Assembly: GCA_050014695.1 (NCBI GenBank)
Contig: JBEKCV010000010.1
Coordinates: 8,619-72,618, forward strand
DNA from: Thermodesulfovibrionales bacterium
GTDB lineage: Bacteria; Nitrospirota; Thermodesulfovibrionia; Thermodesulfovibrionales; UBA9159
Length of the DNA stretch: 64,000 bases
Direction: 5' to 3'
This document shows positions 29,511 through 45,763 of this stretch, piece by piece; position 1 is the first letter of the stretch, and every line of letters begins with the position of its first letter. The notes under the pieces are model-generated. The model saw only the letters and a list, made by a program, of their open reading frames with translations, made no database searches and had not been told where the DNA came from. Both the position numbers and the translations under genes were made by a program.

Positions 29511-30481
29511 AGTGCGACAATATCTTTTCATTCTATGCAGAGGACTTGGACCGTGTAGAGAAGAGCCTCAGAACCATCTTTGCGAGCGATGCCTTCATTA
29601 TCCCGATGGTCGGGGAGCACATTATACGCAGTGGCGGCAAAAGGCTGAGACCGCTTTTTTTAATCCTGAGCGCTGAGCTTGCCAATTACAGGGGTGAAAA
29701 CAGGATCATCCTCGCGGGTATCATTGAAGCGATCCACACAGCCTCCCTTCTCCATGATGACGTTGTGGATGGTGCCGAGGTCAGGAGGGGGAAGGCCGCC
29801 TCTCATGTCGTTTGGGGAAATCAGGTAGTCATCTTAGTGGGAGACTACATTTATGCCAATGCCCTGAGAATCTCTGTCCTTCAGGAAGACCTGAGGATCA
29901 TCGAGGCGCTGTCAGCGGCGATAGCGGCCATGACCGAGGGCGAGATTATCCAACTGAACAGGGTGGCGGACCCGGAGATAACCCTCGATGAGTACTACCG
30001 GATAATCTCTTCAAAGACTGGCGCTCTGATCTCGGCGGCATGCAGGATCGGCGGTATCCTGGGTCGGCTTCCGCTGGAACAGGTGGATGCGCTCGGCAGA
30101 TTCGGTATGAAGACGGGCATAGCGTTCCAGATAGCTGACGATATACTGGATTACATGGCAGAGGAGAGGGATCTCGGGAAGAAACTGGGGAAAGACCTTG
30201 AGGAAGGCAAAATAACCCTTCCCCTCATTTATCTGCTCGGGGAGGCATCCGGTGAAGAAAAGGAGGAGGTGAAGCGTATTATCAAGAATGACCTCTTCGC
30301 AGTGGATGACTTGATGAGGATTACGAAGCTGTTCAGAAAGTATCATGCGATAGAAGAAGCTCTCAGGATTGCGCAAAGGCTGCTCAATGAAGCCAAGGAA
30401 GAGCTTGCGGTATTTGGGGACATACCGGAAAGGCAGGCCCTGTTGATGCTTGCGGAATACGCCCTTGCAAGGGAGAGATGA
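29507..30481 (+). CDS. trans-polyprenyl diphosphate synthase (long-chain, IspB/HepT-like)
   Basis: FARM 'LLHDDVVD', SARM 'DDILD', 'GKRLRP'. The ATG overlaps the mtnA stop (ATGA). Confidence 0.9.
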
Positions 30482-30987: not shown

Positions 30988-32496
30988 ATGAACATGTCTC
31001 TCAAGGGAAACCTCAGAGATCATAGTCTGCCGCGAATACTCCTTGACATCAAGAGGAAAGGAGTGACCGGCACCCTTTCTCTCATGTCTTCGTCTGTTGA
31101 AAGAACTATCTATTTCCGGAACGGGGAAGCGATTTTCGCTTCTTCCACGTCGGATGCTGACAGGCTCGGGGAGATGCTCCTGAAGGCCGGCAAGATTACC
31201 GTGCAGGGGTACGAGAAATCCATTGAACTGCTGAAGAGAACGGGGCAACGATATGGTGCGATACTGGTGGAACTCGGCTGCCTCACACCGAAAGACCTCT
31301 TATGGGGCGTCAAATACCAGGTCGCGGAGATCCTGTACAGCTGCTTCAGGCTTGACGAGGGCGCTACCTATGAGTTGCAGGAGGCAGTCTCGCCTTCCCT
31401 CGATATAACCCTCACGCTGAGCACGGAAGCTCTTGTCTACGAGGGCATAAAGAGGCTTCGGGAACAGGGGGAAATGGGGAAAGATATGCCGGACCTGGAT
31501 ATGGTATTTAAACTCGATGATGATCGCGCACATCTTCTCCGGGGCGAGGGCGCCGTTGTTGACCTCGATGCCGAGGATAGAAGGATATTTTCCCTCGTGG
31601 ACGGAGAAAGAACGGTAAGGCAGGTGATAGAGGAAGCGCATGCGAGTCCGTTTGAGACCATGAAGACCCTGTATGGGTTGGCGGTTGTCGGAGTCATTGT
31701 GAAGAGGGAAGCCCCGCGGGGGGAAAACGGTGAGACCAGAGATTCCAGAGCGACGGCCGGGGACGAGCCGCGAGGTCAAGGCGATAAAAATCCGTCCACT
31801 TCCGAAGTCGATAGCGCCCTGGCGCGAAGGGTTGACGATTTTTATCAGCGGGCGAAGGATATGGGCCCAGATGAAATACTCCAGGTTGATGAGAAGACAG
31901 GACCGGAGGAGATAAAGAGAAATTACTATCGACTGGTACGAGAGTTTCATCCTGACAGGGTTTATCATACAGACGATAAGGAACTGAAAGGTAAGGTCAC
32001 CGTCCTTTTTGATACCATCACGAAGGCATATAGACTGTTCCAGGATGAGGAAAAGCGGAGGGAGTATTTTGATTCCCTTCTCAGGCCGTCAAAGCCTCCG
32101 TCATGGAAACAATCCCAACAGTCACCTGACAACGCGACGCGGGAAACACTCTTGACAGAAATGTTTCAGAGAGGGGTCCAGGAATTTAAAAAGGGCAATT
32201 TCTGGGGTGCTGCTGATCTGTTTAAACGGGTGACCAAGGAGGACCCTCGAAATACTAAGGCGTGGAGTTATCTTTCTCTTGCCCTGAGCAAGGTCCCCAA
32301 CAGACTGAAAGAGTCTGAAGAAGCGCTCCTCAAGGCTGTTGCCCTTGACCCGCTGAACAGTGAGCATCTCACGAACCTGGGGCTCATATACCTCAAGGCG
32401 GGTCTTAATATGCGGGCAAGAAAACAGTTCGAGAAGGCCCTGAAATTAGACCCTGCGAATAAACAGGCAAAACAGGGACTTGAACAGATAGGATGA
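30988..32496 (+). CDS. DUF4388 (PatA-N-like) + J-domain + TPR protein
   Basis: 'LKGNLRDHSLPRILLDIKRKGVTGTLSL'; J-domain 'ILQVDEKTGPEEIKRNYYRLVREFHPDR'; C-terminal TPR repeats. Confidence 0.8.
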   Translation: MNMSLKGNLRDHSLPRILLDIKRKGVTGTLSLMSSSVERTIYFRNGEAIFASSTSDADRLGEMLLKAGKITVQGYEKSIELLKRTGQRYGAILVELGCLTPKDLLWGVKYQVAEILYSCFRLDEGATYELQEAVSPSLDITLTLSTEALVYEGIKRLREQGEMGKDMPDLDMVFKLDDDRAHLLRGEGAVVDLDAEDRRIFSLVDGERTVRQVIEEAHASPFETMKTLYGLAVVGVIVKREAPRGENGETRDSRATAGDEPRGQGDKNPSTSEVDSALARRVDDFYQRAKDMGPDEILQVDEKTGPEEIKRNYYRLVREFHPDRVYHTDDKELKGKVTVLFDTITKAYRLFQDEEKRREYFDSLLRPSKPPSWKQSQQSPDNATRETLLTEMFQRGVQEFKKGNFWGAADLFKRVTKEDPRNTKAWSYLSLALSKVPNRLKESEEALLKAVALDPLNSEHLTNLGLIYLKAGLNMRARKQFEKALKLDPANKQAKQGLEQIG

Positions 32497-32554
32497 CTAT
32501 CGAGTTTGGGGCAGGAGTCTCAGACCCGATGGAACGCTCGAAGGCGTATTGATA

Positions 32555-32965
32555 ATGGATGCGATCGCCGAACGGCTAAAAGAACTCTTTGCGGAAATCT
32601 CACCCATGATTGAATCATACACCCGGGAGGTCTGTCCTCAATGTGCGCAGGTCTGCTGCAAGCAGAGGCATGCCTTGCCGGATGCGAAAGACCGTGTTTT
32701 CCTGCGTGCTCTCGGGCTTGAGAGTCCGCCGTACGACAACCGTCGGTCGCCCGACGAACAGTGCCAGTTTCTCGGCAGCACGGGCTGTGTGAACCCGCGG
32801 TGGATGAGACCTTTTCGGTGTACATGGTTTTTCTGTGAACCCTTGTTGAGGGCCATGGATGAAGGAGCTGGAAAGAGATGCCGGAAATTGACGGCACTGC
32901 TGGGGGAGATCGTCAAAATGAGCAACGACTTACAGGGAAGATCCCTGTATGGGACATCCCCGTAG
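32555..32965 (+). CDS. YkgJ/UPF0153-type Cys-rich putative Fe-S or zinc protein
   Basis: 'CPQCAQVCC' (the CxxCxxCC signature), then 'CQFLGSTGC' and 'RCTWFFC'. Confidence 0.6.
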   Translation: MDAIAERLKELFAEISPMIESYTREVCPQCAQVCCKQRHALPDAKDRVFLRALGLESPPYDNRRSPDEQCQFLGSTGCVNPRWMRPFRCTWFFCEPLLRAMDEGAGKRCRKLTALLGEIVKMSNDLQGRSLYGTSP

Positions 32966-33055
32966 ATTTGTTGCAGGAGATCAGCTGTCTGTTGCCGTTT
33001 GGCGTGAACAGCGCCGAAGAGATGGCATTATCGTACGCCGTACAGAACACGTGCT

Positions 33056-34048
33056 ATGAATATTTCATATTTGATGAGTTCGTATCCAGGGATGTACATC
33101 GTCCAATCGTTTTGGCATTCTCTCATAGCGACTGTTTTGGTGGACAGCGCCATCCGTATATGGAGGATCAACAATTCATCCGCAAGGCAGAGGTTTCGAT
33201 TCCTCGTTCTCATATGCCCGCTCGTCTTATTCCCCATTTATCAGGCAATAAATCCTGACCGGGGCTCCGTTTTTTTCAGACTTGAGGCGCTCTTCGATAG
33301 TAATCGATTGATGAACCTGGAGTTATGGGGAGGGATCCCCTTGAGTGCCGGCGTCGCTCTTGTCGTCTGTATTACGACAATCATCTTCATCATGCAGGAG
33401 ATAATCCCGATCATGAGGCACGCCATTGAATCGAGACAATCCGGACCTGAAGGGGACATGCTCGCTGAGGATTCTCCTGTGCAGAGGGCTTTAGAGGACT
33501 TGCCCGGAGAAAAGCCCGACATTATCGTACTGGATGATGACGAACTCGTGTTGTTTTCCAGGACAGGGAAAAAAACGGCAATCTTCTTATCCTCCGGCGT
33601 GTTGAAGGAACTGAGCGTTGAACAGTTGCAGGCTGCGATCGCCCATGAGATTGCTCATATCATCAGAAATAGACAACCGGTCCTCATTATTATATTTCTC
33701 CTGCGGCTCCTGATGTTTTATAATCCCGTTGTCCTCCTTGAGTTCAGAAGGATTGTCCAGGAAGAAGAAAACATCTGTGATGATGTGGCGGTTTCCCTGA
33801 CGCGCAAACCCCATGCATTGATTGAAACACTGAAGAAACTGTATTATGAGCCTGAAGAGAGGAATCCCCTGAACCTGCGTGAGCTATCGAAGTTGAAAGA
33901 CTCCATCGAGGAGTACGGCCACAATATGCATATCGAGGGCAGGATTATGAGGCTCGAACAAGGGGGTGGCCCGAAAACCGACAGCGCATGGTTTGCTTTC
34001 GTGCTGACACTTTCGGCGATCATCGTAATGAATTATTTCATCGTGTGA
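33056..34048 (+). CDS. M56 (BlaR1-type) / M48-like membrane zinc metalloprotease
   Basis: Several N-terminal TM segments and HExxH 'AIAHEIAHI' followed by another TM. No BlaI/MecI-type repressor is adjacent. Confidence 0.7.
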   Translation: MNISYLMSSYPGMYIVQSFWHSLIATVLVDSAIRIWRINNSSARQRFRFLVLICPLVLFPIYQAINPDRGSVFFRLEALFDSNRLMNLELWGGIPLSAGVALVVCITTIIFIMQEIIPIMRHAIESRQSGPEGDMLAEDSPVQRALEDLPGEKPDIIVLDDDELVLFSRTGKKTAIFLSSGVLKELSVEQLQAAIAHEIAHIIRNRQPVLIIIFLLRLLMFYNPVVLLEFRRIVQEEENICDDVAVSLTRKPHALIETLKKLYYEPEERNPLNLRELSKLKDSIEEYGHNMHIEGRIMRLEQGGGPKTDSAWFAFVLTLSAIIVMNYFIV

Positions 34049-34055
34049 GGGCAAG

Positions 34056-34589
34056 GTGAGTGTAGGTAAGAAAATCCTTGGTGCGTTTTCCTTTGCAATA
34101 CTGATCGCAGGCGTCATCATCGCCTTAAAGATCCTGAATTGGCTGCCTCTTGCTGTCCAGGAGGGCTCCATGAAACGGTATGACAGCATAGAGGAGGTGA
34201 GGGCGGCGTTGAATGTCAGAGAGATATATGTCCCGGCATATTTCCCCCAGAGTCTCACCTGGCCGCCGTCATTGATCTTGGCGCAGAGTAAACCGTTTGA
34301 AGCGATCATTATGGTGTTTACTTCGGCGGCCAAGGGCGGTGTCACACTCGTGACTTCGCAGTCGACCGCCGCTGATTTTGTCCCCGATGACACAATAAAG
34401 ATCCTCCGCACAAAGGAAACGGTCAAATACTCTTTAAGAGGCAGAGATGCCCTGATCGAGGTGGGAACCGGCAAAAACGAAGAGCAGTGCAGCCGGATTT
34501 CATGGACTGAGGGGAAATTCAAGATACGTGTCGCGATGAAGTCAAATCCATTTGATTTAATAAGGATTGCAGAGAGTATGGTGCGTTGA
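34056..34589 (+). CDS. membrane-anchored hypothetical protein (DUF4367-like C-terminus)
   Basis: GTG start 7 nt after the protease stop; N-terminal TM 'AFSFAILIAGVIIAL'; C-terminal 'ISWTEGKFKIRVAMKSNPFDLIRIAESM'. Confidence 0.5.
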   Translation: MSVGKKILGAFSFAILIAGVIIALKILNWLPLAVQEGSMKRYDSIEEVRAALNVREIYVPAYFPQSLTWPPSLILAQSKPFEAIIMVFTSAAKGGVTLVTSQSTAADFVPDDTIKILRTKETVKYSLRGRDALIEVGTGKNEEQCSRISWTEGKFKIRVAMKSNPFDLIRIAESMVR

Positions 34590-34852
34590 GCCTTCCCCTG
34601 CGAACGCCCTGTCATCATGTTCCGATATGAAATAGCCGCTCGGCCAGCATGTCGAGAAAGGCAGTCGTAGCACCGTCCGGCAGTGCCCGGTAGGCATATC
34701 TTCTCCCTCGTCCAAATTATCCCCCTGACGTAGGAACAAATTCCTATAAGAAATAGGAGTTTGTTCCAATTTTCTTCGCCTTCTCCTTCTGTTATAGTGG
34801 ATTCAGAAAGCACGGGATACAACATTTCAGGCAGGAAAGGAGGTGAATAAAG

Positions 34853-35173
34853 ATGACACGGTATAAGGGAGGAGATAGGGTCCGCAAGGGAACTTACTGG
34901 GATTTCAAGAGCGGAAACAGGGTTGATATGGCCGGCGAAGGTATTCTTCCGGGGGATGAGAGATCGAAATACGTAAGATGTCCCCCCGTTCTCGTGCTGC
35001 TTTCAGGCCCTGTAGTGGGGCTGTTCTACGTCGTAGCACTCCCCTTTATCGCCTTGGGAACAATCCTGACGCTCGCGGCGGGGAAACTCCTAACCGGTAT
35101 AGTAAGCATTGTGCCTTTTGGATGGAGACCGGGAGAAGCGCATTTAGGAGGGAAACGGAAGAAACAGAAATAA
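34853..35173 (+). CDS. small membrane protein, paralogue A (106 aa)
   Basis: SD 'aaaggaggtgaataaag' before the ATG. C-terminal module 'PVVGLFYVVALPF-x23-FGWRPGEAHLGGKRKKQK'. Confidence 0.55.
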   Translation: MTRYKGGDRVRKGTYWDFKSGNRVDMAGEGILPGDERSKYVRCPPVLVLLSGPVVGLFYVVALPFIALGTILTLAAGKLLTGIVSIVPFGWRPGEAHLGGKRKKQK

Positions 35174-35226
35174 CGGTGATTACGGCGGGCCGACATGAAG
35201 AAGGTCCGGAAAGGAAGGAGGAAAAA

Positions 35227-35619
35227 ATGAATACGCTCTATGATTTCATTACCCATGTCAAGGGAGTGGAGTACCTATTAGCAATCCTGTTCATTGCGGG
35301 ATACATTCTCTACGCCGAAGCGTTAAAACCGAAGCCCTTCAAGACCCTGGTAGAGTCGGGCAAGGAGGACCTCGAGTTCATAAAAGAAAGGGGCCTTGCA
35401 AACACCCTGAAGAGCATTGGTAAGATCGCCGCCGCTCCGTTCATTGGGCTCGCGTACGTGATTATGCTTCCCTTCACCTTTGTATATGCCCTGGGAACAG
35501 CGGCGCTCAACGGTATCTTCGCACTGGCAGGAAGGAGTGCATCATTTGGGTGGAGGCCTACCGAGGCTTATCTGGCGGGCAAGAAGAAGGATAAGAAGAA
35601 AAAGGTCGAAGAGGAATAA
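35227..35619 (+). CDS. small membrane protein, paralogue B (130 aa)
   Basis: SD 'ggaaggaggaaaaa' before the ATG ('MNTLYDF'). C-terminal module 'PFIGLAYVIMLPF-x23-FGWRPTEAYLAGKKKDKKKK'. The longer track ORF from 34978 has no SD and a non-protein-like N-terminus. Confidence 0.6.
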   Translation: MNTLYDFITHVKGVEYLLAILFIAGYILYAEALKPKPFKTLVESGKEDLEFIKERGLANTLKSIGKIAAAPFIGLAYVIMLPFTFVYALGTAALNGIFALAGRSASFGWRPTEAYLAGKKKDKKKKVEEE

Positions 35620-35710
35620 TTCCGAGGAGCAGGAAAGCACCCACGACAACTCAGCAATCCCCCGTAGTGTTAGCCCTCTCCGGGGGTTGTTGAAAAGGAG
35701 GCAACAATAG

Positions 35711-36172
35711 ATGAAAAAGATAATCATGATCTGCTTTGTATTCAGCATCTGCATATTCTTCGGTACGTCCCTCTTTGCGGGGAATGGTGCCAAAAACCCT
35801 GAGTTTGTGACCCTTGACAGCATAGCAGACAAGTATGAGTCAGTCATCTTCACGCATGCAAGGCACGCCACTCTGGCGGGGAATTGCGGGTCGTGCCATC
35901 ACCAGCACGCCGACAGTGGAACGCTTCCCTGTAAGGGATGCCATTCCCTTACGCCCGCTGATTTTAAAAAGTCGGTTACGCAGAGTTTCATGGCCTGCAA
36001 GAACTGCCACGCCGGCAATGACCGCGCGAATCCAGCGGTTCCGGGACTCAAGGTTGCCTACCATCAGATGTGCTTCCAATGCCACAAGGGGATGGGCAAC
36101 ATCGGTCTGGACCCGAAGGGCTGCACGGAGATATGCCATGCGAAGAAAGAACAGGTAATAAGCCAGAAGTGA
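35711..36172 (+). CDS. periplasmic class III (c3-type) multihaem cytochrome, 4 CxxCH plus one CX3CH
   Basis: Signal peptide, 'VIFTHARHA', then 'CGSCHH', 'CKGCH', 'CKNCH', 'CFQCH', 'CTEICH'. Confidence 0.85.
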   Translation: MKKIIMICFVFSICIFFGTSLFAGNGAKNPEFVTLDSIADKYESVIFTHARHATLAGNCGSCHHQHADSGTLPCKGCHSLTPADFKKSVTQSFMACKNCHAGNDRANPAVPGLKVAYHQMCFQCHKGMGNIGLDPKGCTEICHAKKEQVISQK

Positions 36173-36195
36173 CGAAGCCACGGAAAGGAGGAATC

Positions 36196-37209
36196 ATGGA
36201 CAACGAACACAGAACAGATAAAGAACACGAAGCCGTAAAAAACGGCGGTGGAAATTCCGACTGCAAGAAACGTCTTACCCTGACCAGGAGAGGTTTCTTA
36301 GGGACCGTGGCTTCGGTAGGGGGGGCAGCCCTCATCAGCAACGCGAAAGAGGCTTGCGGGTATAAGGAATTTGCCGGCTACCCTGACAGCTTCGGCTGCC
36401 TGACGGATTTTACCCGGTGCGTGGGATGTCGGAGCTGCGAAAAGGCCTGTAACGAGGCGAACAACCTTGAGAAGCCACAGGTCCCCTTTGACGATAAGTC
36501 TGTTTTTGAGGAAACAAGAAGACCGAATGCACATGCATATACGGTGGTCAATAGATATGAAAATCCGAAAGATAAGAGCAATCCTATCTACCGGAAAATG
36601 CAGTGCAACCACTGCAAAGAGCCAGGGTGCGCCACTGCATGCCCCATCCATGCCTATTCGAAGACTCCGGAAGGGGCGGTTTTTTACGATGAGAGTCTCT
36701 GTTTCGGCTGCAGATATTGTATGACGGCCTGCCCGTTTTATGTACCGTCCTTTGATTATTGGAGTGCCCTGGAGCCGAAAATCGTAAAATGCACTATGTG
36801 CCGCGACAGGATCAAGAAGGGCGGCATCACCGCCTGCGCAGAGGCCTGTCCTACGGGCGCTATCACCTTTGGCAAGAGGGAAGACCTGATCAAAGTGGCG
36901 AGGGAGAGGATCGGGAAAAACCCGGACAAGTATGTCGACCATATCTACGGGGAACATGAGGTCGGAGGGACGAACTGGATGTATGTCTCCGGAGTTCCCT
37001 TTGAGCAGCTCGGCTTTCCTTCGCACCTGCCGACAACACCACTCGTTGAACAGACAAAAGGCTTTCTCGCCGCGGTACCGGTCGTGCTGACCGTCTGGCC
37101 AGCGCTCTTCGGAATGTGCTATGCAGCCCTTCGTCACAGGAACGAGCAGGATAAACAGGATAAAGAGAAAGAAGCGAGTCAAGGAAAGGAGGAGATGAAA
37201 AATGGGTAA
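36196..37209 (+). CDS. Tat-exported 4x[4Fe-4S] ferredoxin-type subunit (NrfC/HybA/DmsB-like) with C-terminal TM anchor
   Basis: Tat motif 'TRRGFLGTV'; clusters 'CVGCRSCEKAC', 'CNHCKEPGCATACP', 'CFGCRYCMTACP', 'CTMCRDRI...CAEACP'. SD 'ggaaaggaggaatc'. Confidence 0.9.
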   Translation: MDNEHRTDKEHEAVKNGGGNSDCKKRLTLTRRGFLGTVASVGGAALISNAKEACGYKEFAGYPDSFGCLTDFTRCVGCRSCEKACNEANNLEKPQVPFDDKSVFEETRRPNAHAYTVVNRYENPKDKSNPIYRKMQCNHCKEPGCATACPIHAYSKTPEGAVFYDESLCFGCRYCMTACPFYVPSFDYWSALEPKIVKCTMCRDRIKKGGITACAEACPTGAITFGKREDLIKVARERIGKNPDKYVDHIYGEHEVGGTNWMYVSGVPFEQLGFPSHLPTTPLVEQTKGFLAAVPVVLTVWPALFGMCYAALRHRNEQDKQDKEKEASQGKEEMKNG

Positions 37210-38437
37210 CGGATATGCAGTGAAGAACGAAAACTTCAGATCTTGGTTCATGGATAAGTTACTCATGGGACTGAGTTGGCCGGAGTACTCGAGAAAACTC
37301 CTGACTCCTTTCAATGTGATCGCAGCGATCATCCTGTCCATCGGACTCCCCCTGATCGTCCTGCGGTTCGTCGATGGTCTCTATCTTGTCACCCATGCTT
37401 CAGACGATTACCCGTGGGGCTTGTACCTCGGGTGGGGACTTTTTGGAGGAGTTCCGCTGTCGGCAACGGGATTTGTGATGGCCACAGCCTATTACATCTT
37501 CGGGTTTAAAGGCTTTCGACCGATTGTGAGGCTTGCAGTCCTGACAGGATTCCTGGGCTATCTCTTTGCGGTCATTTATCTCCTCGTGGACCTCGGCAGA
37601 CCGTGGAGAATCTACTACCCCATGATTATCGGGTTCGGTACGGCCTCAGTGCTGTTTCTTGTGGCGTGGCATGTGGCAACATACCTGACGGTCCAACTTC
37701 TTGAATTCAGCCCCGCTATCTTAGAATGGCTTAAATCGAGAAGGGTCAGGAGATGGGCAACAATGATCACCATTGGCATGACCATTGCCGGTATCATCCT
37801 GTCCACGCTCCATCAGTCCGCCCTCGGCGCAATGTATTTGCTCGCGCCCGGGAAACTCCACCCGCTCTGGTTCTCATCGTATATCCCAACCTTCTTCCTG
37901 AGCTCGGCGGTCTATGCGGCTCTTGCCATGGTAATCGTCGTGAGCACCCTTGCCGTCCGTTTTCTCAGAGACAAGGCCGGCCCGACTTTTCTCGGAAGTA
38001 TAGACAGAATAACTCTCGGCCTCGGCAAGGGCGCCTGTATCGGCATGTACGTCTACTTTGTACTGAAGGTGATCGGGATAGCGCATGACGACAACTGGGG
38101 GCTCCTGAGCACTCCGTATGGCTACTGGTTCCTTGTGGAGATCCTCGGCTTTGTCCTGCTGCCCGCACTCATCTTCACGTTGGGAGTGAAGATGAGCAGT
38201 GTGAGGACGGTCCGCTTCGGTGCCTTCCTTGCCGTCATCGGGATTATCGTGAATCGCCTCAACGTATCGATCGTGGCGCTGAACTGGAATCTCCCGCATC
38301 ACCTCCATCACATCATTCCACCCTGGCGGGAAGTGGCCGTCGTCCTAAGCATCGCTACGATACACATTCTCATATTCCGTTGGATCCTGAACCGCATGCC
38401 CGTCATGAGGGAAGAACCGGGTTATGAGGATCACTAG
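37202..38437 (+). CDS. NrfD/PsrC-family integral membrane quinone-interacting subunit
   Basis: 411 aa with about 10 hydrophobic helices. It overlaps the FeS gene by 8 nt, which is the canonical FeS-NrfD pairing. Confidence 0.9.
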   Translation: MGNGYAVKNENFRSWFMDKLLMGLSWPEYSRKLLTPFNVIAAIILSIGLPLIVLRFVDGLYLVTHASDDYPWGLYLGWGLFGGVPLSATGFVMATAYYIFGFKGFRPIVRLAVLTGFLGYLFAVIYLLVDLGRPWRIYYPMIIGFGTASVLFLVAWHVATYLTVQLLEFSPAILEWLKSRRVRRWATMITIGMTIAGIILSTLHQSALGAMYLLAPGKLHPLWFSSYIPTFFLSSAVYAALAMVIVVSTLAVRFLRDKAGPTFLGSIDRITLGLGKGACIGMYVYFVLKVIGIAHDDNWGLLSTPYGYWFLVEILGFVLLPALIFTLGVKMSSVRTVRFGAFLAVIGIIVNRLNVSIVALNWNLPHHLHHIIPPWREVAVVLSIATIHILIFRWILNRMPVMREEPGYEDH

Positions 38438-38516
38438 ACGTGAGCTCTTGAAGGGATATAAGGGGGATACCTCGCTGCGGGGTGTCCCCCTCCGGGACAA
38501 CGGGGGGGGTGAGACA

Positions 38517-40007
38517 ATGAGGGCTCCTCAACGAAATACCTTTATGACGGAGGCGGTGAGCATAAAGGGGAGAAAGGACATAATTTACCTGGTGCTTTCT
38601 CTTTCGCTCATCTTTCTTATTCCGGCAGACTTTGCTTATGCAAAAGGGAACGGCCAGCAGGAAGCGGTTCAACAGTGTCTGAAGTGCCATGGGAAACGGG
38701 GCATCACAAAAAAATTCGAGAACGGTGAATCGGTAGCGGCCTATGTGGACAGCGAAAGCTTCAAGAATTCTGTTCACAAATCCCTGACCTGTTTCGATTG
38801 TCACCCCGATTTTTCCGGAGAGAACCATCCCGACAGGAGATTCCGGAGCGCGGAGCAGTTCAGAATAAAATCCTCGCGGGCATGCAGAAAGTGCCACACC
38901 GTTGAACAAATAAAAAGGGAATCCATTCACGCCACATTATTGAGGGAGGAAGATGAGGGCAGAGCACATCCCTGCACAAACTGTCATGGTTCCCACGCAA
39001 TAGTGCCGATAGGCGTCGAACGGATGACAAATGAAGAGCAATATTGCATGGAGTGTCATGCTCACGAGGTGAGCATGGAATGCAGAAATGGTGAAAGGGC
39101 GTTACTGAAAATGGACAGCACTGCGTTGAAGGCCTCTGTGCATAACAAGCTCGGGTGCTCGGACTGCCATTTCGGATTTTCCCCGTCTCATCACCCTCAG
39201 AGAAACTTCAGGAGCATCCGTGATTTTTCGATCGCCAATGCAGAGATGTGCCGACGCTGTCACTTCGATAAATATACGAAGGAGATGGAGAACGTCCATT
39301 ATGTGAAGCGCAGTCAGGGCAACCTCAGTACGCCGGTATGTACCGATTGCCACGGCTCTCACGCCGTGGTGAGTTTTGAGAAAGAGAGAACGGCGATAGC
39401 CTGGAGATGCCAGAAATGTCATCCGCAGGTATTTGCCCTGTATGCACAAAGCGTACACGGAAGAGGGCTTTTTGAAGAACAGAGCCAGGACGTCCCGGTC
39501 TGCACGGATTGCCATACGGCACACGATATCAAAGACCCGCTGACCCTGGAGTTCCGCGAGCACATACCGGAGAGGTGCAGCAACTGCCATGCAAATAAAG
39601 CCGTGATGGCGAAATATGGACTTTCGACGGATGTCGTAAAAACCTATTTGTCGAGCTTCCATGGGGTCACCTTGGCCTTTTACAGAAAGCAGAGGGAGGA
39701 GATGAGCAAGCCCGCCAGACAGATAGCCGTATGTACGGATTGCCACGGCACCCATAATATCATGAGCACCAGAGCCGCGAATCCGGCCGTCGTAAGAGCC
39801 AACCTCGTGAAGAGGTGCCAGCAGTGTCATGCGCAGGCAACTCGGAATTTTCCGGACGCATGGCTCTCTCACTACGAGCCGAGCCTGAAACAAGCCCCTC
39901 TCGTTTTCATGATCAACCTGCTCTATACGGTTTTCCTGCCTATTCTGGTGGTAGGGCTTATCCTCCAAATCCTCTTGCATGCCTGGCGTTATGCGGTCAA
40001 CAGATGA
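38517..40007 (+). CDS. 13-haem c-type cytochrome with doubled-CXXCH repeats and C-terminal TM anchor
   Basis: I counted 13 CxxCH motifs (CLKCH, CFDCH, CRKCH, CTNCH, CMECH, CSDCH, CRRCH, CTDCH, CQKCH, CTDCH, CSNCH, CTDCH, CQQCH). C-terminal TM 'LVFMINLLYTVFLPILVVGLIL'. Start uncertain (38424 or 38517). Confidence 0.85.
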   Translation: MRAPQRNTFMTEAVSIKGRKDIIYLVLSLSLIFLIPADFAYAKGNGQQEAVQQCLKCHGKRGITKKFENGESVAAYVDSESFKNSVHKSLTCFDCHPDFSGENHPDRRFRSAEQFRIKSSRACRKCHTVEQIKRESIHATLLREEDEGRAHPCTNCHGSHAIVPIGVERMTNEEQYCMECHAHEVSMECRNGERALLKMDSTALKASVHNKLGCSDCHFGFSPSHHPQRNFRSIRDFSIANAEMCRRCHFDKYTKEMENVHYVKRSQGNLSTPVCTDCHGSHAVVSFEKERTAIAWRCQKCHPQVFALYAQSVHGRGLFEEQSQDVPVCTDCHTAHDIKDPLTLEFREHIPERCSNCHANKAVMAKYGLSTDVVKTYLSSFHGVTLAFYRKQREEMSKPARQIAVCTDCHGTHNIMSTRAANPAVVRANLVKRCQQCHAQATRNFPDAWLSHYEPSLKQAPLVFMINLLYTVFLPILVVGLILQILLHAWRYAVNR

Positions 40008-40019
40008 AAGGAGACAACG

Positions 40020-40757
40020 ATGGAAGGTGACCAGATAAAAGAGGGGTACGTGAGGAGATTCAGCTTCTATCGAATAATCGAGCATTGGCTGCATGCCGTC
40101 ATTTTTGCGATCCTGGTTGTGACCGGCCTTTCCCAACGGTTCTATAGCCTTGATGTCTCGCAGCTGCTGGTGATGTATCTCGGCGGAATCGATTCCGTCA
40201 GGATGATCCACAGGGTCACCGGGTTGTTCCTAGCTTTCCTCCTGATCGAGCATGTCTTTGTTGCCTCATACGGCATTCTTTTCAGAAAATGGAAACCCTT
40301 GATCATGATCACCAAAAAGGATTTCAGCGACGCCATCGACAACCTGAAATACTATCTCAACATGAAAGACCATCAGGCATACTGCGACCGATACGGATAT
40401 AAACAAAAATTCGAATATTGGGGAATCCTTTCCGGCCTGCTCGTGATGATGGGAACAGGGGTCATCCTGTGGTTCCCTGCGACGGTCAGCCGATTCCTCC
40501 CCGGAGAACTCATCCCCGCGGCAAAAGTGATGCACTCAAATGAGGCATTCCTCATATTCCTCATCATAGCCCTTTGGCATATCTATAATGCGATATTCAA
40601 TCCGGAGATATTCCCCCTTGATACCAGTATACTTACCGGTTACATATCATGGGAACGGATGGTGCGTGAACACCCAGCTGAGCTCGCAAGGATTGAGGGT
40701 AAAACGCTCCAGGAGATTGTTCATCCGGAGCACCGCGAAAAGTTCAGACGCGATTAG
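40020..40757 (+). CDS. membrane dihaem cytochrome b (FdnI / Ni-hydrogenase b-type cytochrome family)
   Basis: 'RFSFYRIIEHWLHAVIFAILVVTG', 'HRVTG', 'MHSNEAFLIFLIIALWHIYNA'. Four TM segments with conserved His pairs. It starts 12 nt after the cytochrome c gene. Confidence 0.85.
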   Translation: MEGDQIKEGYVRRFSFYRIIEHWLHAVIFAILVVTGLSQRFYSLDVSQLLVMYLGGIDSVRMIHRVTGLFLAFLLIEHVFVASYGILFRKWKPLIMITKKDFSDAIDNLKYYLNMKDHQAYCDRYGYKQKFEYWGILSGLLVMMGTGVILWFPATVSRFLPGELIPAAKVMHSNEAFLIFLIIALWHIYNAIFNPEIFPLDTSILTGYISWERMVREHPAELARIEGKTLQEIVHPEHREKFRRD

Positions 40758-40829
40758 AGGAGCTTACACGCAAGACCATCATCCCTATTCGTCCCTTTCC
40801 ATTTTTTGAATGTTCATTTATAATGCTTT

Positions 40830-42680
40830 ATGAGGATTACAAAAGGTGGGCTGCAAAGAAGGATCACGCTCGCGGCGACGCTCGGCTTATCCCTGATAGT
40901 GTTATGCTTTGGAATCGTAAGCTATTATCTTATCGAGAGGAACATCGAAGACACCCTGAACAAGAGAATTGCCCTTGCTCATCTTATCCGGAATAATGTC
41001 GATACCGTCATAAAAGAAAATATTAATCGCCTCTATGACATATCGCTCTCCGGAAGCATCGACCTGCATGGCAGCGATGTCAGACTGGCAAAGGAAGCCC
41101 TTGCCACCGCATATCGGTATTCCATATTTACCGACGGTATTTTTCTCATGGACACGGGAGGGAATGTCCTTCTCAACTATCCTGAAAGAATGAAGGACGT
41201 CTCCCTTAATTTGCTGAGTATCGAGCCAATAAGCAGGATGATTGCCATGGGAAAGCCGGTTGTATCGAATATCTATACGGTGGAGCCCGTAAAGAAGAAG
41301 CTTCTCTATATCCTCGTGCCGTTTCGTGATAAGAATGGCAACTACGCTGGAGTTGCCGGGGGGGAGATTGACCCGACAAATCCGCTCTTGACCAGCATGC
41401 TTAGGTTACGCGACGCGGGGGGAAATACGTTTGTCGATATCATCGATTCCAACGGTGTGGTTGTTGCGTCGTCAACTCCGTCGCGGGCACTGACCTATTG
41501 CGACTATAATAACATTTTCAGCGCGCTGATCAGTTCAAAGAAAGAACGGGTGACTACCTGCCATCAATGTCATATCAAGGGCACCGGGAGAGAGAAGATC
41601 ACGAATATGATGGCTTTCGTCCCCCTCGAGACAGCACCGTGGGGGGTATCGATCCAGGAACCCGAGAAAGACGTTTTTGCGCCTGTCGTTAAGTTGAAGT
41701 GGACCCTGTCGGCGCTGGGCATCATTTTTATCGGTACTGCTTTTATGCTGACCTGGGGCGTCAGTCGGAGTATTGTCAATCCTATTCGAGAGTTAACCTA
41801 TGCAACCGAGCGAATCGCAGAGGGTAAGCTCTCGACTCCCCTTTTTCCCCAGGGAGGCGATGAAATAGGTGTTCTCGGCAGGAGCTTTGAGAGCATGAGG
41901 CTAAAATTGGTCGAATCCATGGAAAACACGAAGCGGTACAACATCGAACTCGAAACTCGGGTGAAGGAAAGGACTCGGCAGATAAAAGAGAGCGGGAGGA
42001 GAATCCAAAACCTTTTGAAAAAGATCATATCGAGTCAGGAGGAGGAGCGAAAGCGGATCGCCAGGGAATTGCATGACATCACCCTTCAGGAACTCTCAGC
42101 TATCCTCATGAGGCTCGATATTTGTAAATTGTTCCCGGAGAGCATCTCTCAGGAGAAGATCGAAGAGGTGCGGAACATCACCCTGAATGCGCTTGATGGG
42201 GTACATACGATTACCCAGAACCTGAGGCCATCCGTTCTCGATGATCTGGGGCTTGAGTCGGCAATAAAATGGCTCCTTGATACCCATCTCAAGGAACGGG
42301 GTGTAACCTATTTCTTCAAGATGTTCGGAGCCACTGATATGAGGTTCAGTCCCGAGGTCGAAATAAGCCTTTTCAGGACCATACAGGAGGCAATTGTGAA
42401 TATCGCCCGTCACGCAAAAGCGAAACACGTCCTTATCAGCATGGAGATAGTTGGCAGGATGGTGTCTGTCCTGATAGAAGATGATGGCCAGGGTTTTGAC
42501 CTTGACCTTCTGTTGCAGAATACGCTCAATTATAAAGACGGCAGGGGGTTAGGCATCCTTGGCATGAGAGAGAGGGCCTATTTCATTGGAGGCACATTGC
42601 ATTTAAGTTCATCTCTGGGCAGCGGCACGAAAATAACGCTGAAGGTGCCTCTGGATGCTCAGGAGTTTCATGATGTCTAG
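40830..42680 (+). CDS. sensor histidine kinase (NarX-type HisKA_3) with periplasmic Cache-like domain carrying a CxxCH motif
   Basis: TM1, a ~250-aa periplasmic region containing 'TTCHQCHIKG', TM2, HAMP, 'RIARELHDITLQ' (H-box), 'NIARHAKA', 'DDGQGF', 'GLGILGMRERA'. Confidence 0.9.
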   Translation: MRITKGGLQRRITLAATLGLSLIVLCFGIVSYYLIERNIEDTLNKRIALAHLIRNNVDTVIKENINRLYDISLSGSIDLHGSDVRLAKEALATAYRYSIFTDGIFLMDTGGNVLLNYPERMKDVSLNLLSIEPISRMIAMGKPVVSNIYTVEPVKKKLLYILVPFRDKNGNYAGVAGGEIDPTNPLLTSMLRLRDAGGNTFVDIIDSNGVVVASSTPSRALTYCDYNNIFSALISSKKERVTTCHQCHIKGTGREKITNMMAFVPLETAPWGVSIQEPEKDVFAPVVKLKWTLSALGIIFIGTAFMLTWGVSRSIVNPIRELTYATERIAEGKLSTPLFPQGGDEIGVLGRSFESMRLKLVESMENTKRYNIELETRVKERTRQIKESGRRIQNLLKKIISSQEEERKRIARELHDITLQELSAILMRLDICKLFPESISQEKIEEVRNITLNALDGVHTITQNLRPSVLDDLGLESAIKWLLDTHLKERGVTYFFKMFGATDMRFSPEVEISLFRTIQEAIVNIARHAKAKHVLISMEIVGRMVSVLIEDDGQGFDLDLLLQNTLNYKDGRGLGILGMRERAYFIGGTLHLSSSLGSGTKITLKVPLDAQEFHDV

Positions 42681-43332
42681 GATAACGGTTCTCATTGCAG
42701 ATGACCATACGCTGGTGAGGGAGGGTATCGCGGCATTCCTTAAGTTGTCTGATGACATCGAGGTGATTGCTGAAGCCTCGGACGGCCTCGAAGCAATCGA
42801 AAAAGCCAAGAAATTTGATCCTGATGTGGTCTTGATGGATATCTCGATGCCCAAGCTTGGGGGGCTGGAAGCGACGATTGAGCTGAAGAAAATAAAACCA
42901 GCGATAAAGATACTTGTCCTCACCCAGTATGATGACAAAGAATATATCTCACGTTTTTTGAAAGCAGGGGTTTCCGGATACTTGTTAAAACGGGCGGTGG
43001 GGAGCGATCTCATCTCCGCCATACGGGCGGTAAGCAGGGGAGAGACGTATCTCTTTTCCTCCATTGCCGCAGAGGTGGTCGCGGGCTATCTCGGCAAAGA
43101 TAAGAATGAATCGATGGTGGATCCCTATGAAAAACTGACGGACCGGGAAAAGCAGGTTTTAAAGCTTGTTGCTGAGGGATATACGCACAAAGAAATAGCG
43201 GATATGCTTGATATTAGCGCCAAGACGGTCATAGCCCACCAAACCAATATCAGTGAAAAGCTTGATATTCATACCCGTGCGGGCTTGATTAAATTTGCCA
43301 TCCACCGGGGAATCATAAAGATAGACTCATGA
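42670..43332 (+). CDS. NarL/LuxR-family response regulator
   Basis: 'ITVLIADDH', 'DVVLMDISMPKLGG', 'VLTQYDD', and the HTH 'LTDREKQVLKLVAEGYTHKEIADMLDISAKTVIAHQTNI'. Confidence 0.9.
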   Translation: MMSRITVLIADDHTLVREGIAAFLKLSDDIEVIAEASDGLEAIEKAKKFDPDVVLMDISMPKLGGLEATIELKKIKPAIKILVLTQYDDKEYISRFLKAGVSGYLLKRAVGSDLISAIRAVSRGETYLFSSIAAEVVAGYLGKDKNESMVDPYEKLTDREKQVLKLVAEGYTHKEIADMLDISAKTVIAHQTNISEKLDIHTRAGLIKFAIHRGIIKIDS

Positions 43333-43423
43333 ACGAACTGCTGACATCCTCCGACCACCAAACCGCCACGCGTTTCCTGATATAAATCATACCCGGTCAC
43401 CAGTAAAAATTGTAATATGCATT

Positions 43424-44422
43424 ATGAGGAGTGATCGTTCGTATATCAGAAAGGTACGTTACGCTGTCCAGGGGATTATCTCTCTTCTCGTGCTTTATGT
43501 CGGGTTCACTTTTTATCTTTTTGCCGAGGATCTCATGCAGGGGAGAGTTCCCTCTTTGCCCCGTCCTCCATCGGTGGAAGGATTCATGCCCATAGGCGCG
43601 CTCATGTCATTGAAACTCTTGGTTACTGAGGGGATCTTTGATCCGGTGCACCCTGCGGCCCTAGTTCTTTTTTGCGGTGCAGCACTGTCGTCAGTTTTGC
43701 TGAAAAAGTCATTCTGCGGATGGATATGCCCGGTGGGCACGCTGTCGGAGGCTGTCTGGAAGGTGGGACAAAGAATATTCGGGAAAAATGTCACCCTGCC
43801 GCGATTCATCGACTATCCCCTGAGGTCTCTAAAATATATTCTCATGGCGTTTTTCCTTTTTATCATACTCGTGAAGATGTCATCCCAAGAAGTCATAGGA
43901 TTCCTCTCGACGCCTTACTGGAAGGTCACGGATATCAAACTCTTGCAATTCTTTATGGAAATGTCATTGATGACGCAGATAGCGATCGGCGTTCTCATAG
44001 CATTGTCCCTCATCGTTAAGAATTTCTGGTGCAGGTATCTTTGCCCTTACGGCGGATTGCTCGGACTGGTGAGCCTGCTCAGTCCCGTAAAGATAAAGCG
44101 GACTGACCTGGCATGCATTCACTGCGGCCTCTGTTCCAGGCATTGCCCATCACTCCTGCCTGTCGACCGGAAAAGGGTCATCCGCTCTCCGGAGTGCATG
44201 GGCTGTCTCACCTGCGTGAGCCACTGCCCTGCACAGGGCGCTCTTGATGCGATGGTCACGGGCAGAAAGCGGATGAGCCCGCTGGCCTTCGTTCTTATGG
44301 TTATGAGTGTTTACTTTGGTCTGATTCTCGTGGCGAAATTAACCGGGAGATGGCATTCATCTGTTTCTTACGAGGAACTCCGCAGCCTTGTGCCGATTCT
44401 CGACGGGCTCATCCACCCCTGA
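43424..44422 (+). CDS. NapH/MauN-like polytopic membrane 4Fe-4S protein
   Basis: 'FCGWICPVG', 'WCRYLCPYG', then ferredoxin motifs 'CIHCGLCSRHCP' and 'CMGCLTCVSHCP'. Confidence 0.8.
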   Translation: MRSDRSYIRKVRYAVQGIISLLVLYVGFTFYLFAEDLMQGRVPSLPRPPSVEGFMPIGALMSLKLLVTEGIFDPVHPAALVLFCGAALSSVLLKKSFCGWICPVGTLSEAVWKVGQRIFGKNVTLPRFIDYPLRSLKYILMAFFLFIILVKMSSQEVIGFLSTPYWKVTDIKLLQFFMEMSLMTQIAIGVLIALSLIVKNFWCRYLCPYGGLLGLVSLLSPVKIKRTDLACIHCGLCSRHCPSLLPVDRKRVIRSPECMGCLTCVSHCPAQGALDAMVTGRKRMSPLAFVLMVMSVYFGLILVAKLTGRWHSSVSYEELRSLVPILDGLIHP

Positions 44423-44734
44423 GATACAACGACCGCCTAATATCACGTACGAGACGGGACAGGGATGCAAAGGGGAAAATGGGTACCCTTTCCAGGGCCG
44501 GTGCCAGAAAGCCCACGTGATTCATCCGTCAGTGAATGGCACGCCGTCAAGCTCCTGTGCGCTGCTGCTCTCTGTGCTTCCTGATGGTTTCCGAACAGTT
44601 ATCGAAAGTGTCAAGAGCAACAGCATACCGGCAGTTTTTTTCTGTCAAGACCGGAAATCGATGGCAAGGTCATCTCATTGTCTTTTACGGTGAAGAGTTT
44701 GACGATAAGAATGAGTATAATAGAGGGTGAGGCT

Positions 44735-45763
44735 ATGGAGATGAATGCTCAGGACAAAGCGAATCCAGGCAGCTATGACATTGTCTCGTGGCTGATCATG
44801 GGAGTCCTGCTCCTCCTGACGCTTGAGTTGCACCTCCTGCCTGCGTTGCTCGCCGGGTTACTCGTGTACGAACTCGTCCATCTCTTGGCCCCGTTGCTCC
44901 GAATTACCAGATTGGCGGGCAATCGCGCCAAGGTCGTGGTGGTCATGGTCCTATCCATTACGGTCGTGGTGTTGCTAGCTCTGCTGACGGGGGAGACAGT
45001 CTCCTTGCTCCGGAGCGAGTCGGGTAGTATTCCGGAGGCGATGAAGAAAATGGCGGAGATTCTTGAGGGATCGCGCGACAGGCTCCCTGCTTGGTTGGTG
45101 GATTATCTGCCGGCTGATGCTGAGGGGTTTAAGAACTGGGCGGTGCACTGGTTACGGACGCATGCGGGTGAGCTACAGGCGGCGGGGAAAGAGGTGGGCC
45201 GCGTGGTTGTGCATATCGTAATTGGCATGGTGATCGGCGTGCTGATTTCCCTGAGGGAGGTGATGCCCATCCAGGAATATCGTCCCCTTGGGCGGGCGCT
45301 GGTTGAGCGCGTTACACGCTTCAGTGAAGCTTTCAGTTCTATCATTTTCGCACAAGTGCGCATTGCGGCGCTGAACACCTTTTTTGCATGGCTTTATCTG
45401 GGCGTTGTGTTACCGGTACTCGGCATTCACCTGCCACTCGTGAAGACCATGGTGGCTATTACCTTTCTCTCAGGCTTGCTACCGGTTGCCGGCAATCTGA
45501 TCTCGAACTCGGTGATCGTGGTAGTCAGCTTGAGCCAGTCGCTGTCCGTTGTGGCAGCTTCTTTCGTTTTTCTTGTGGTCATTCATAAGCTTGAGTATTT
45601 CCTGAACGCCACCATTGTGGGAAGCCGGATCCATGCTCGGGCCTGGGAGTTGCTGGTGGCGATGCTCGTGATGGAGGCGGCTTTCGGGCTTGCAGGCCTT
45701 ATTGCGGCTCCAATCTACTATGCATACGTAAAGAATGAGTTGGCGGACTGGGGCCTAGTCTGA
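44735..45763 (+). CDS. AI-2E/PerM (UPF0118) family transporter
   Basis: 8 TM-like segments; C-terminal 'LSGLLPVAGNLISNSVIVVVS...HKLEYFLNATIVGSR'. The start is set at the ATG after 'gagggtgaggct'. Confidence 0.8.
   Translation: MEMNAQDKANPGSYDIVSWLIMGVLLLLTLELHLLPALLAGLLVYELVHLLAPLLRITRLAGNRAKVVVVMVLSITVVVLLALLTGETVSLLRSESGSIPEAMKKMAEILEGSRDRLPAWLVDYLPADAEGFKNWAVHWLRTHAGELQAAGKEVGRVVVHIVIGMVIGVLISLREVMPIQEYRPLGRALVERVTRFSEAFSSIIFAQVRIAALNTFFAWLYLGVVLPVLGIHLPLVKTMVAITFLSGLLPVAGNLISNSVIVVVSLSQSLSVVAASFVFLVVIHKLEYFLNATIVGSRIHARAWELLVAMLVMEAAFGLAGLIAAPIYYAYVKNELADWGLV

Follow-up and report, generated by a model that had tools for sequence, protein, structure and literature searches.

Does a compact set of genes that includes two different quinone-interacting membrane proteins and an array of multiheme cytochromes encode a single respiratory complex, or two that lie side by side? 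The question is raised by a cytochrome block in a 64,000-nucleotide (nt) stretch of DNA from a Thermodesulfovibrionales bacterium (contig JBEKCV010000010.1, positions 8,619 to 72,618; hereafter, the window). An earlier note on this DNA described a single module of five tightly packed genes, here g1 to g5, that encode, in this order, a c3-type cytochrome, a protein with four [4Fe-4S] clusters, an NrfD-family membrane protein, a cytochrome with 13 hemes, and an FdnI-type cytochrome b. These genes, with their coordinates and cofactor motifs, are borne out by the list of open reading frames and a motif scan, and all five family assignments hold (HmcB and HmcC profiles, c3-type, 13-heme, and FdnI fold). 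The unit, however, comprises seven genes rather than five, two small membrane proteins, sm1 and sm2, being added, along with flanking regulators. We are inclined, with moderate confidence, to view it not as one module but as an operon for two juxtaposed, separable menaquinone-to-periplasm modules under common regulation, which would act in parallel and without a catalytic subunit. Module A, of a putative reduced Nhc/Hmc type, would consist of sm2 and the trio g1, g2, and g3, and module B, with an FdnH/FdnI-like architecture, of g4, g5, and probably sm1.

Separability of the cytochrome pair from the iron-sulfur trio

The block was followed across 86 loci, drawn from the gene neighborhoods of homologs and from a search of genomes in which each species was represented once; in that search, g4 found relatives in 197 genomes, of which the best 80 of 197 were kept. 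The relatives are all metagenome-assembled genomes (MAGs), species-level, and gene order was read by tblastn with the proteins of the window. In ~70 of the 86 loci, the order is fixed: M56/M48 protease, a protein of 177 amino acids (aa), sm1, sm2, g1 to g5, a Cache/HAMP/HisKA_3 kinase, and a NarL-type regulator. The hosts are mostly Nitrospirota of the Thermodesulfovibrionales, including Ca. Sulfobium and Dissulfurispiraceae, joined by MAGs labeled 'Deltaproteobacteria' or Deferrimicrobia (MBNT15). Among the latter is PowLak16_MAG18 (locus L061), placed in the phylum MBNT15, no genome of which encodes dissimilatory sulfate reduction (PMC9386147); the block is therefore not tied to sulfate respiration.

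Five distinct relatives (L003/L039, L048, L076, L084, and L086) depart from the fixed order: sm2, g1, g2, and g3 are missing, whereas g4 and g5 are present along with the kinase, the regulator, and the two upstream genes for the protease and the 177-aa protein, and three of the five retain sm1. Because g4 and g5 are kept where sm2 and the trio are absent, the 13-heme/cytochrome b pair appears to work without the trio, and sm1 seems to belong with the pair, and sm2 with the trio. In a neighbor-joining tree of the 13-heme protein, four of the trio-less loci make up the basal clade, and the fifth falls among loci that have the trio. The gap between g3 and g4 is the most variable junction of the block, ranging from ~20 to ~300 nt, and in L013 it has received an inserted kinase fragment. 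In the literature, 'cytochrome b + multiheme cytochrome' and 'NrfD + iron-sulfur (FeS) + multiheme cytochrome' are treated as distinct classes of menaquinone:cytochrome c oxidoreductase (PMC7327174), and Shewanella SirCD, an FeS protein with an NrfD subunit, alone works as a quinol dehydrogenase (PMC11434368). It is the conjunction of these four points, namely, the separability of module B, the variability of the g3-g4 junction, the existence of two classes, and the autonomy of SirCD, that leads us to favor two modules over the single five-gene module of the earlier note.

In the window itself, we read the stretch from sm1 to g5 (34853-40757) as one seven-gene operon because a strong terminator-like hairpin stands upstream of it, the terminator-like matches within it are weak (stems of 5-6 pairs, in numbers that over the scanned region are about those of shuffled sequences), and none of its intergenic gaps contains such a match. 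Apart from the g2/g3 overlap of 8 nt and the 12 nt between g4 and g5, both as described before, there are gaps of 23 nt and of ~80-90 nt. A promoter scan gave no more sites than shuffled sequence, the hairpin being the sole standout, and a scan of positions 32000-45000 matched no Rfam family.

This compactness lends itself to another interpretation. The seven proteins might form one Hmc/Dsr-like supercomplex in which menaquinone, common to the NrfD subunit and the cytochrome b, cycles between sites at the periplasmic and cytoplasmic faces, with electrons entering by one periplasmic heme wire and leaving by the other, in a process coupled to the proton-motive force (pmf) that would either conserve energy or be driven uphill. 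An invariant gene order in ~70 species and what is apparently one transcription unit fit this picture, and sm1 and sm2, with their common cytoplasmic C-terminal motif, could bridge the two halves. Hmc, through its hmc operon, combines an NrfD subunit with a cytochrome b. DsrMKJOP does so as well, with quinone suggested to cycle between DsrP and DsrM (PMC8076601). The combination as such thus has precedents. Nevertheless, a supercomplex seems unlikely given that five distinct relatives have module B but lack module A and that the junction between the two halves stretches and tolerates an insertion.

Table 1. Features of the cytochrome block and its immediate neighbors (positions in the window)
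Feature	Positions	Strand	Remarks
M56/M48 (BlaR1/HtpX-like) membrane metalloprotease	33056..34048	+	Pfam Peptidase_M56 38.3 bits, M48 30.4 bits
177-aa protein with one N-terminal hydrophobic helix (residues 3-35)	34056..34589	+	syntenic; always 3' of the M56 gene
Terminator-like hairpin, 15-bp stem and T-rich tail	34733..34767	+	separates the cytochrome operon from the protease pair
sm1, small membrane protein, C-terminal motif FGWRPxEAxLxGK	34853..35173	+	paralog of sm2; stays with g4/g5 where the trio is absent
sm2, small membrane protein, N-terminus weakly HmcD-like, C-terminus paralogous to sm1	35224..35619	+	travels with the g1-g2-g3 trio
g1, periplasmic pentaheme c3-type cytochrome (best reading), 153 aa	35711..36172	+	4 CxxCH and CTEICH (CX3CH); N-terminal signal-like helix
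g2, 4x[4Fe-4S] protein exported by the twin-arginine (Tat) pathway, HmcB/HybA/FdnH type	36196..37209	+	RRGFL Tat motif; C-terminal anchor helix, residues 289-312
g3, NrfD-family membrane subunit, HmcC/HybB type	37202..38437	+	8-nt overlap with g2; Pfam NrfD
g4, 13-heme c-type cytochrome with signal peptide, duplicated four-heme module, and C-terminal membrane helix	38517..40007	+	13 CxxCH
g5, four-helix diheme cytochrome b, FdnI fold	40020..40757	+	heme ligands His22, His64, His172, His187
Sensor histidine kinase: dCache, HAMP, HisKA_3, HATPase	40830..42680	+	Pfam; conserved downstream neighbor
NarL/LuxR-type response regulator, partner of the kinase	42655..43332	+	Pfam Response_reg, GerE; syntenic in nearly all loci

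Subunits and cofactors of the two modules

The cytochrome of module A, g1, belongs to the cytochrome c3 superfamily, with a c3-type domain similarity, five heme motifs, and five further invariant histidines. All 10 cysteines and 10 histidines, 5 of the latter distal, are invariant in 55 orthologs, and the fifth site is always CxxxCH, so that the odd motif CTEICH is real and g1 is best read as a pentaheme protein; together with the 13 hemes of g4, the operon would thus bind 18 c-type hemes, within the 17-18 counted previously. The nearest solved relatives of g1 are the C-terminal tetraheme domain of the nine-heme cytochrome c (expectation value, E, 1.3e-13) and the C-terminal domain of HmcA (E 9e-9); in the alignment to the nine-heme cytochrome, the CX3CH of g1 pairs with a CxxCH, and g1 has an additional heme site in its first motif. 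Among the NCBIfam profiles, HmcA matches with its last domain only, at 50 bits (cut-off 400), 9HemeCytC (NF045784) scores 37.5 bits (cut-off 640), and TmcA is far below its cut-off; Pfam Cytochrome_C7, at 24.2 bits, stays slightly under its gathering cut-off of 24.8.

The FeS protein g2 likely starts at the ATG at 36196, behind GGAGG, the GTG of the longest open reading frame (36070) being too early. Its 16 cysteines, 15 of them invariant and one present in 98% of 65 orthologs, are enough for four [4Fe-4S] clusters, and the RRxFL motif is conserved as well; the Tat export and C-terminal anchor ascribed to it earlier are confirmed. HmcB (NF045715) is its top full-length NCBIfam match, with 414.3 bits against an equivalog cut-off of 420, followed by HybA at 221, and the closest solved relative is FdnH (1kqf_B, E 1.5e-36). 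The membrane subunit g3 is the most conserved gene of the block, its homologs being 74-84% identical. It passes Pfam NrfD (PF03916) with 55.4 bits versus 25.8 and aligns with HmcC (NF045714) over profile positions 2-376 of 376, at 426 bits (cut-off 550), compared with 181 bits for HybB, 69 for QrcD, and 29 for DsrP; no solved relative was found at E <= 1.

The small proteins add to this likeness. The N-terminus of sm2 resembles HmcD (NF045712), with E 0.0047 here and 1.2e-4 in the ortholog of L001, both below the cut-off, and an sm2 ortholog has a weak Pfam match on record, PF28260 (DVU_0533), DVU0533 being HmcD. Besides this weakly HmcD-like N-terminus, sm1 and sm2 have no family match. Orthologs of the two proteins match each other (hhalign 99.6%, E 1.6e-23) in a common region that comprises the membrane helix and FGWRPxEAYLxGKK. 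The comparison with Hmc and Nhc, drawn previously, is right for the trio and is strengthened by sm2. In some relatives, the sm1/sm2 pair is tandemly duplicated (L050, 5440-7017; L057, 2040-6298).

The large cytochrome of module B, g4, has 13 CxxCH motifs, exactly 13 further histidines, and one histidine in the anchor helix, all invariant in 82 homologs; the 13 further histidines suffice for 13 bis-histidine hemes. The C-terminal consensus is GLxLQILLHIWRYAVNR / LQILLHxWRYAVNR, with the invariant anchor histidine, His488, eight residues before the C-terminus. No close characterized relative of g4 turned up: there is a weak DmsE-family match and none to HmcA, the sole weak sequence match to a solved protein is 28pb_A 'Cytochrome c' (E 3e-5) over one four-heme module, and the AlphaFold model (predicted local distance difference test score, pLDDT, 72.9) had no significant Foldseek match, hydroxylamine oxidoreductase being the best at E 0.03 and a template modeling (TM) score of 0.26. 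The public version of g4 (P0001) is a 527-aa form that begins 93 nt upstream of the likely start (38424-38516), with the Tat-like sequence MRITRRELLKG. We dropped this start: the orthologs, of 479-497 aa, do not have it, the closest one starts like ATG 38517, and c-type cytochromes are normally Sec-exported; the annotated start is probably wrong.

The assignment of g5 is supported at several levels. It passes Pfam PF01292 (48 bits versus 30.1); in the alignment to FdnI (1kqf_C), its four ligand histidines, which are invariant in 76 orthologs, fall on His18, 57, 155, and 169; and the AlphaFold model (pLDDT 83) retrieves 1kqf_C in Foldseek with E 1.1e-7 and TM 0.69/0.78, the second match being a hydrogenase-1 cytochrome b. 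The family is broad, with ~1,500 protein clusters, and the label 'formate dehydrogenase gamma subunit' is not warranted by the profile in question (TIGR01583), against which g5 scores 44.6 bits with a cut-off of 115.85. Public proteins 100% identical to g4, g3, and g5 exist (P0001, P0121, and P0241, respectively), and the closest matches listed by the protein searches and the genome scan are all orthologs. Public annotation of the block goes no further than generic names, such as 'cytochrome c3 family', 'NrfD/PsrC molybdoenzyme anchor', or 'formate dehydrogenase gamma'.

Known systems and the absence of a catalytic gene

The general description of the block, as a path for electrons that joins the quinone pool to the periplasm and resembles Hmc/Nhc and Cbc, holds, although each resemblance has its bounds. 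NhcABCD of Desulfovibrio, a simplified Hmc, shares with module A a c3-type multiheme cytochrome, a 4x[4Fe-4S] protein, an NrfD-type subunit, and probably a small membrane subunit, as well as the lack of a cytoplasmic subunit and of a catalytic enzyme (PMC8076601, PMC4215793). The FeS and NrfD parts of Nhc have counterparts here in g2 and g3, but NhcA has 9 hemes, compared with 5 in g1 including the conserved CX3CH, and is matched only in its C-terminal domain; sm2 is no more than weakly HmcD-like (E 0.0047 to 1e-4), its gene precedes that of the cytochrome and has an adjacent paralog, and the entire module lies in the same operon as a cytochrome b/13-heme pair. HmcABCDEF (Desulfovibrio, Thermodesulfovibrio) combines the NrfD-type HmcC with the cytochrome b HmcE, along with HmcB and many c hemes (16 in HmcA). 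Here, however, an HmcF-type cytoplasmic CCG protein is missing, the 18 hemes are split 5 + 13 over two proteins in place of a 16-heme HmcA, g2 and g3 fall below the HmcB and HmcC equivalog cut-offs, and the cytochrome b is of the PF01292 FdnI type, which, on the FdnH/FdnI analogy, would pair with a periplasmic partner, unlike HmcE. In both Hmc and DsrMKJOP, the cytochrome b serves a cytoplasmic CCG protein, unlike in the operon described here.

For module B, a parallel in architecture is CbcBA of Geobacter sulfurreducens, in which a multiheme cytochrome with a C-terminal helix likewise directly precedes a four-helix diheme cytochrome b, the anchor helix contains a histidine, and a regulator gene adjoins (10.1101/2021.04.15.440034). 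This likeness is one of architecture, taken from the published description: CbcA has 7 hemes and g4 has 13, CbcB is reported with three ligand histidines and receives the fourth from CbcA whereas g5 has all four, and the CbcBA regulator is sigma-54 dependent whereas the one here is NarL-type. The part of the earlier comparison that concerns CbcA/CbcB thus stands, but the likeness to cbcEDCBA as a whole does not. We rejected that equation on the published composition of Cbc5, in which CbcA, CbcC, and CbcD are c-type, CbcB is b-type, and CbcE is a membrane protein; FeS and NrfD subunits are absent (PMC11434368). Geobacter Cbc4 (CbcSTU) and Shewanella SirCD, for their part, each have an FeS protein with four clusters next to an integral membrane subunit, which in SirD is of the NrfD/PsrC type; Cbc4 has a small multiheme cytochrome besides. 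Both systems act or are proposed to act as quinol dehydrogenases without a catalytic subunit; CbcS, however, is a membrane-anchored tetraheme protein of the NapC/NirT type, not c3-type, and no cytochrome b/multiheme pair is linked to either system.

Formate dehydrogenase-N of Escherichia coli offers the FdnI fold and the four heme ligands found in g5, along with a periplasmic partner held by a single C-terminal helix, but the block lacks a molybdopterin subunit, g5 is likely partnered by the 13-heme cytochrome, and the FdnH-like g2 overlaps an NrfD gene, as in HybA/HybB and unlike in formate dehydrogenase-N. In Methanoperedenaceae and metal reducers, the two oxidoreductase classes come as separate clusters (PMC7327174), whereas here one of each is encoded in one operon in two phyla. 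The literature searched contained no description of this block. All its parts come from known families; the fixed combination, the pentaheme form of g1, and a 13-heme partner of an FdnI-type cytochrome b seem undescribed in that literature.

A catalytic subunit beside the cluster in relatives was named beforehand, in the earlier note, as a finding that would overturn its description. The window contains none, be it a molybdopterin, NiFe, or other subunit, and none lies in the four largest extra gaps that were opened among the 86 loci, the order of recognized genes being the same in ~70; these gaps hold tandem sm1/sm2 duplicates (L050, L057), the kinase fragment (L013), or no convincing gene (L022). 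Likewise, no molybdopterin subunit, CCG-domain gene, or HdrD-like gene occurs in the block or in the loci for which neighbors were listed or gaps opened. Some relatives have further multiheme cytochromes just downstream, divergently oriented (L001, 12967-14163; L003, 12938-17021), which in L003 make up a second 'multiheme cytochrome, cytochrome b, multiheme cytochrome' cluster.

These absences bear on the possibility that one or both modules are the membrane-anchor/electron-transfer part of an enzyme with its catalytic subunit encoded elsewhere, be it a periplasmic hydrogenase or formate dehydrogenase without a membrane subunit of its own or a periplasmic heme reductase. In cultured Thermodesulfovibrio, a periplasmic hydrogenase and formate dehydrogenase without membrane subunits are indeed thought to feed membrane complexes via cytochromes (PMC5165239), and g2 is a relative of FdnH and g5 one of FdnI, the homologs of g5 being labeled 'formate dehydrogenase gamma subunit' by the sources. 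We nonetheless deem such an arrangement very unlikely: no catalytic gene lies within ~10 kb in the examined loci, where order is conserved and the largest extra gaps were opened, g5 is far from the equivalog score of FdnI, and the 13-heme cytochrome occupies the place of its FdnH-type partner. Indirect coupling to such enzymes via soluble cytochromes would, moreover, be the same thing as two parallel modules.

Electron flow, flanking genes, and implications

How the subunits touch, where quinone binds, which way electrons run, and how the operon is regulated are matters of inference, for which we propose the following scheme. In module A, the pentaheme cytochrome would exchange electrons with the four-cluster FeS protein seated on the HmcC-like NrfD subunit, whose quinone site, by analogy with solved NrfD-type subunits, would be near the periplasmic face; the chain of periplasmic hemes, four FeS clusters, and NrfD quinone site would then work like that of Nhc, Qrc, or Hyd-2. 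In module B, the 13-heme cytochrome would be held by its one C-terminal helix, packing against the four-helix diheme cytochrome b, the hemes of which would relay electrons through the membrane, in one direction or the other, between the periplasmic hemes and a quinone site close to the cytoplasmic face, as proposed for CbcBA. Both modules would be parallel menaquinone:cytochrome c oxidoreductases that serve periplasmic or extracellular partners encoded elsewhere, and the adjacent two-component system, with a heme c motif in the periplasmic sensor domain, probably switches the operon on.

Energetic considerations enter at this point. The protons of QrcD come from the cytoplasm, along a path that is conserved in HmcC and HybB (PMC6303296). 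If HmcC-type subunits draw cytoplasmic protons in the same way, both modules would handle protons on the cytoplasmic side and a loop through the two would be nearly energy-neutral, which is why we prefer parallel operation and which counts against a supercomplex. The most ambitious form of the latter, an assembly of 24 redox centers (18 hemes c, 2 hemes b, and 4 [4Fe-4S]) that exchanges menaquinone internally and couples periplasm-to-periplasm electron transfer to the pmf, with sm1 and sm2 as the bridge, appears quite unlikely; if true, it would be a self-contained redox loop or an uphill driver toward low-potential periplasmic or extracellular partners.

Several considerations weigh against two parallel modules. 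Strict seven-gene co-linearity in ~70 species fits a single complex as well; g2 and g3 are under the NCBIfam equivalog cut-offs for HmcB and HmcC; and the invariant histidine in the anchor helix of g4 is without an obvious role, g5 already having four canonical ligands. The evidence comes from MAG sequences, and the protein contacts are proposed ones. Furthermore, the sequence does not tell the direction of electron flow: Nhc, Qrc, and Fdn usually serve to reduce quinone, a function ascribed to modules of the Nhc, Qrc, and HybB types (PMC6303296, PMC8076601), whereas CbcBA (10.1101/2021.04.15.440034), CbcL, and SirCD oxidize quinol.

The kinase downstream of g5 contains a CHQCH motif at residues 244-248 (~nt 41559-41573), in the dCache region between hydrophobic helices at ~11-36 and 289-312. 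At the same aligned position, most kinase orthologs have CHxCH, CHRCK takes its place in an MBNT15-like group, and both are missing from a third group. The CHxCH motif suggests a covalently bound heme c and, hence, a periplasmic redox or ligand sensor. A gene for a membrane ferredoxin of the NapH/MauN family (Fer4_5 and dicluster domain; 43424-44422) lies just 3' of the response regulator; since none but the closest relatives (L005-L008) have it in the vicinity of the block, it is probably outside the unit.

On the other side, the M56/M48 protease gene is the upstream neighbor in most loci with enough upstream DNA, and the protease and the 177-aa protein, which has no Pfam or NCBIfam match, probably form a transcription unit of their own. 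In two phyla, this pair is kept immediately before the cytochrome operon, and no BlaI-type repressor gene adjoins it (33056-34589). A polyprenyl synthetase gene ~4 kb upstream (29510-30481) might have a role in the quinone side chain; the four relatives with listed neighbors do not have it among their genes upstream of the block. A second sensor kinase (60747-62717; HAMP, GAF, HisKA, HATPase), with one CxxCH, follows two genes for periplasmic substrate-binding proteins and appears unrelated to the cytochrome operon. The remainder of the window is housekeeping, with no further cytochrome.

Few cytochrome loci are as conserved as this block in uncultured Thermodesulfovibrionales and MBNT15/Deferrimicrobia, lineages that are common in groundwater, sediments, and peat, and the block is better read as a pair of menaquinone:cytochrome c oxidoreductases than by the generic labels of its public proteins. 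Such a reading would improve metabolic reconstructions of these organisms, in particular with regard to extracellular electron transfer and the periplasmic use of hydrogen and formate. Moreover, the operon is a natural test case for the cooperation of NrfD-type and cytochrome b-type quinone modules, a question that it shares with Hmc and DsrMKJOP.

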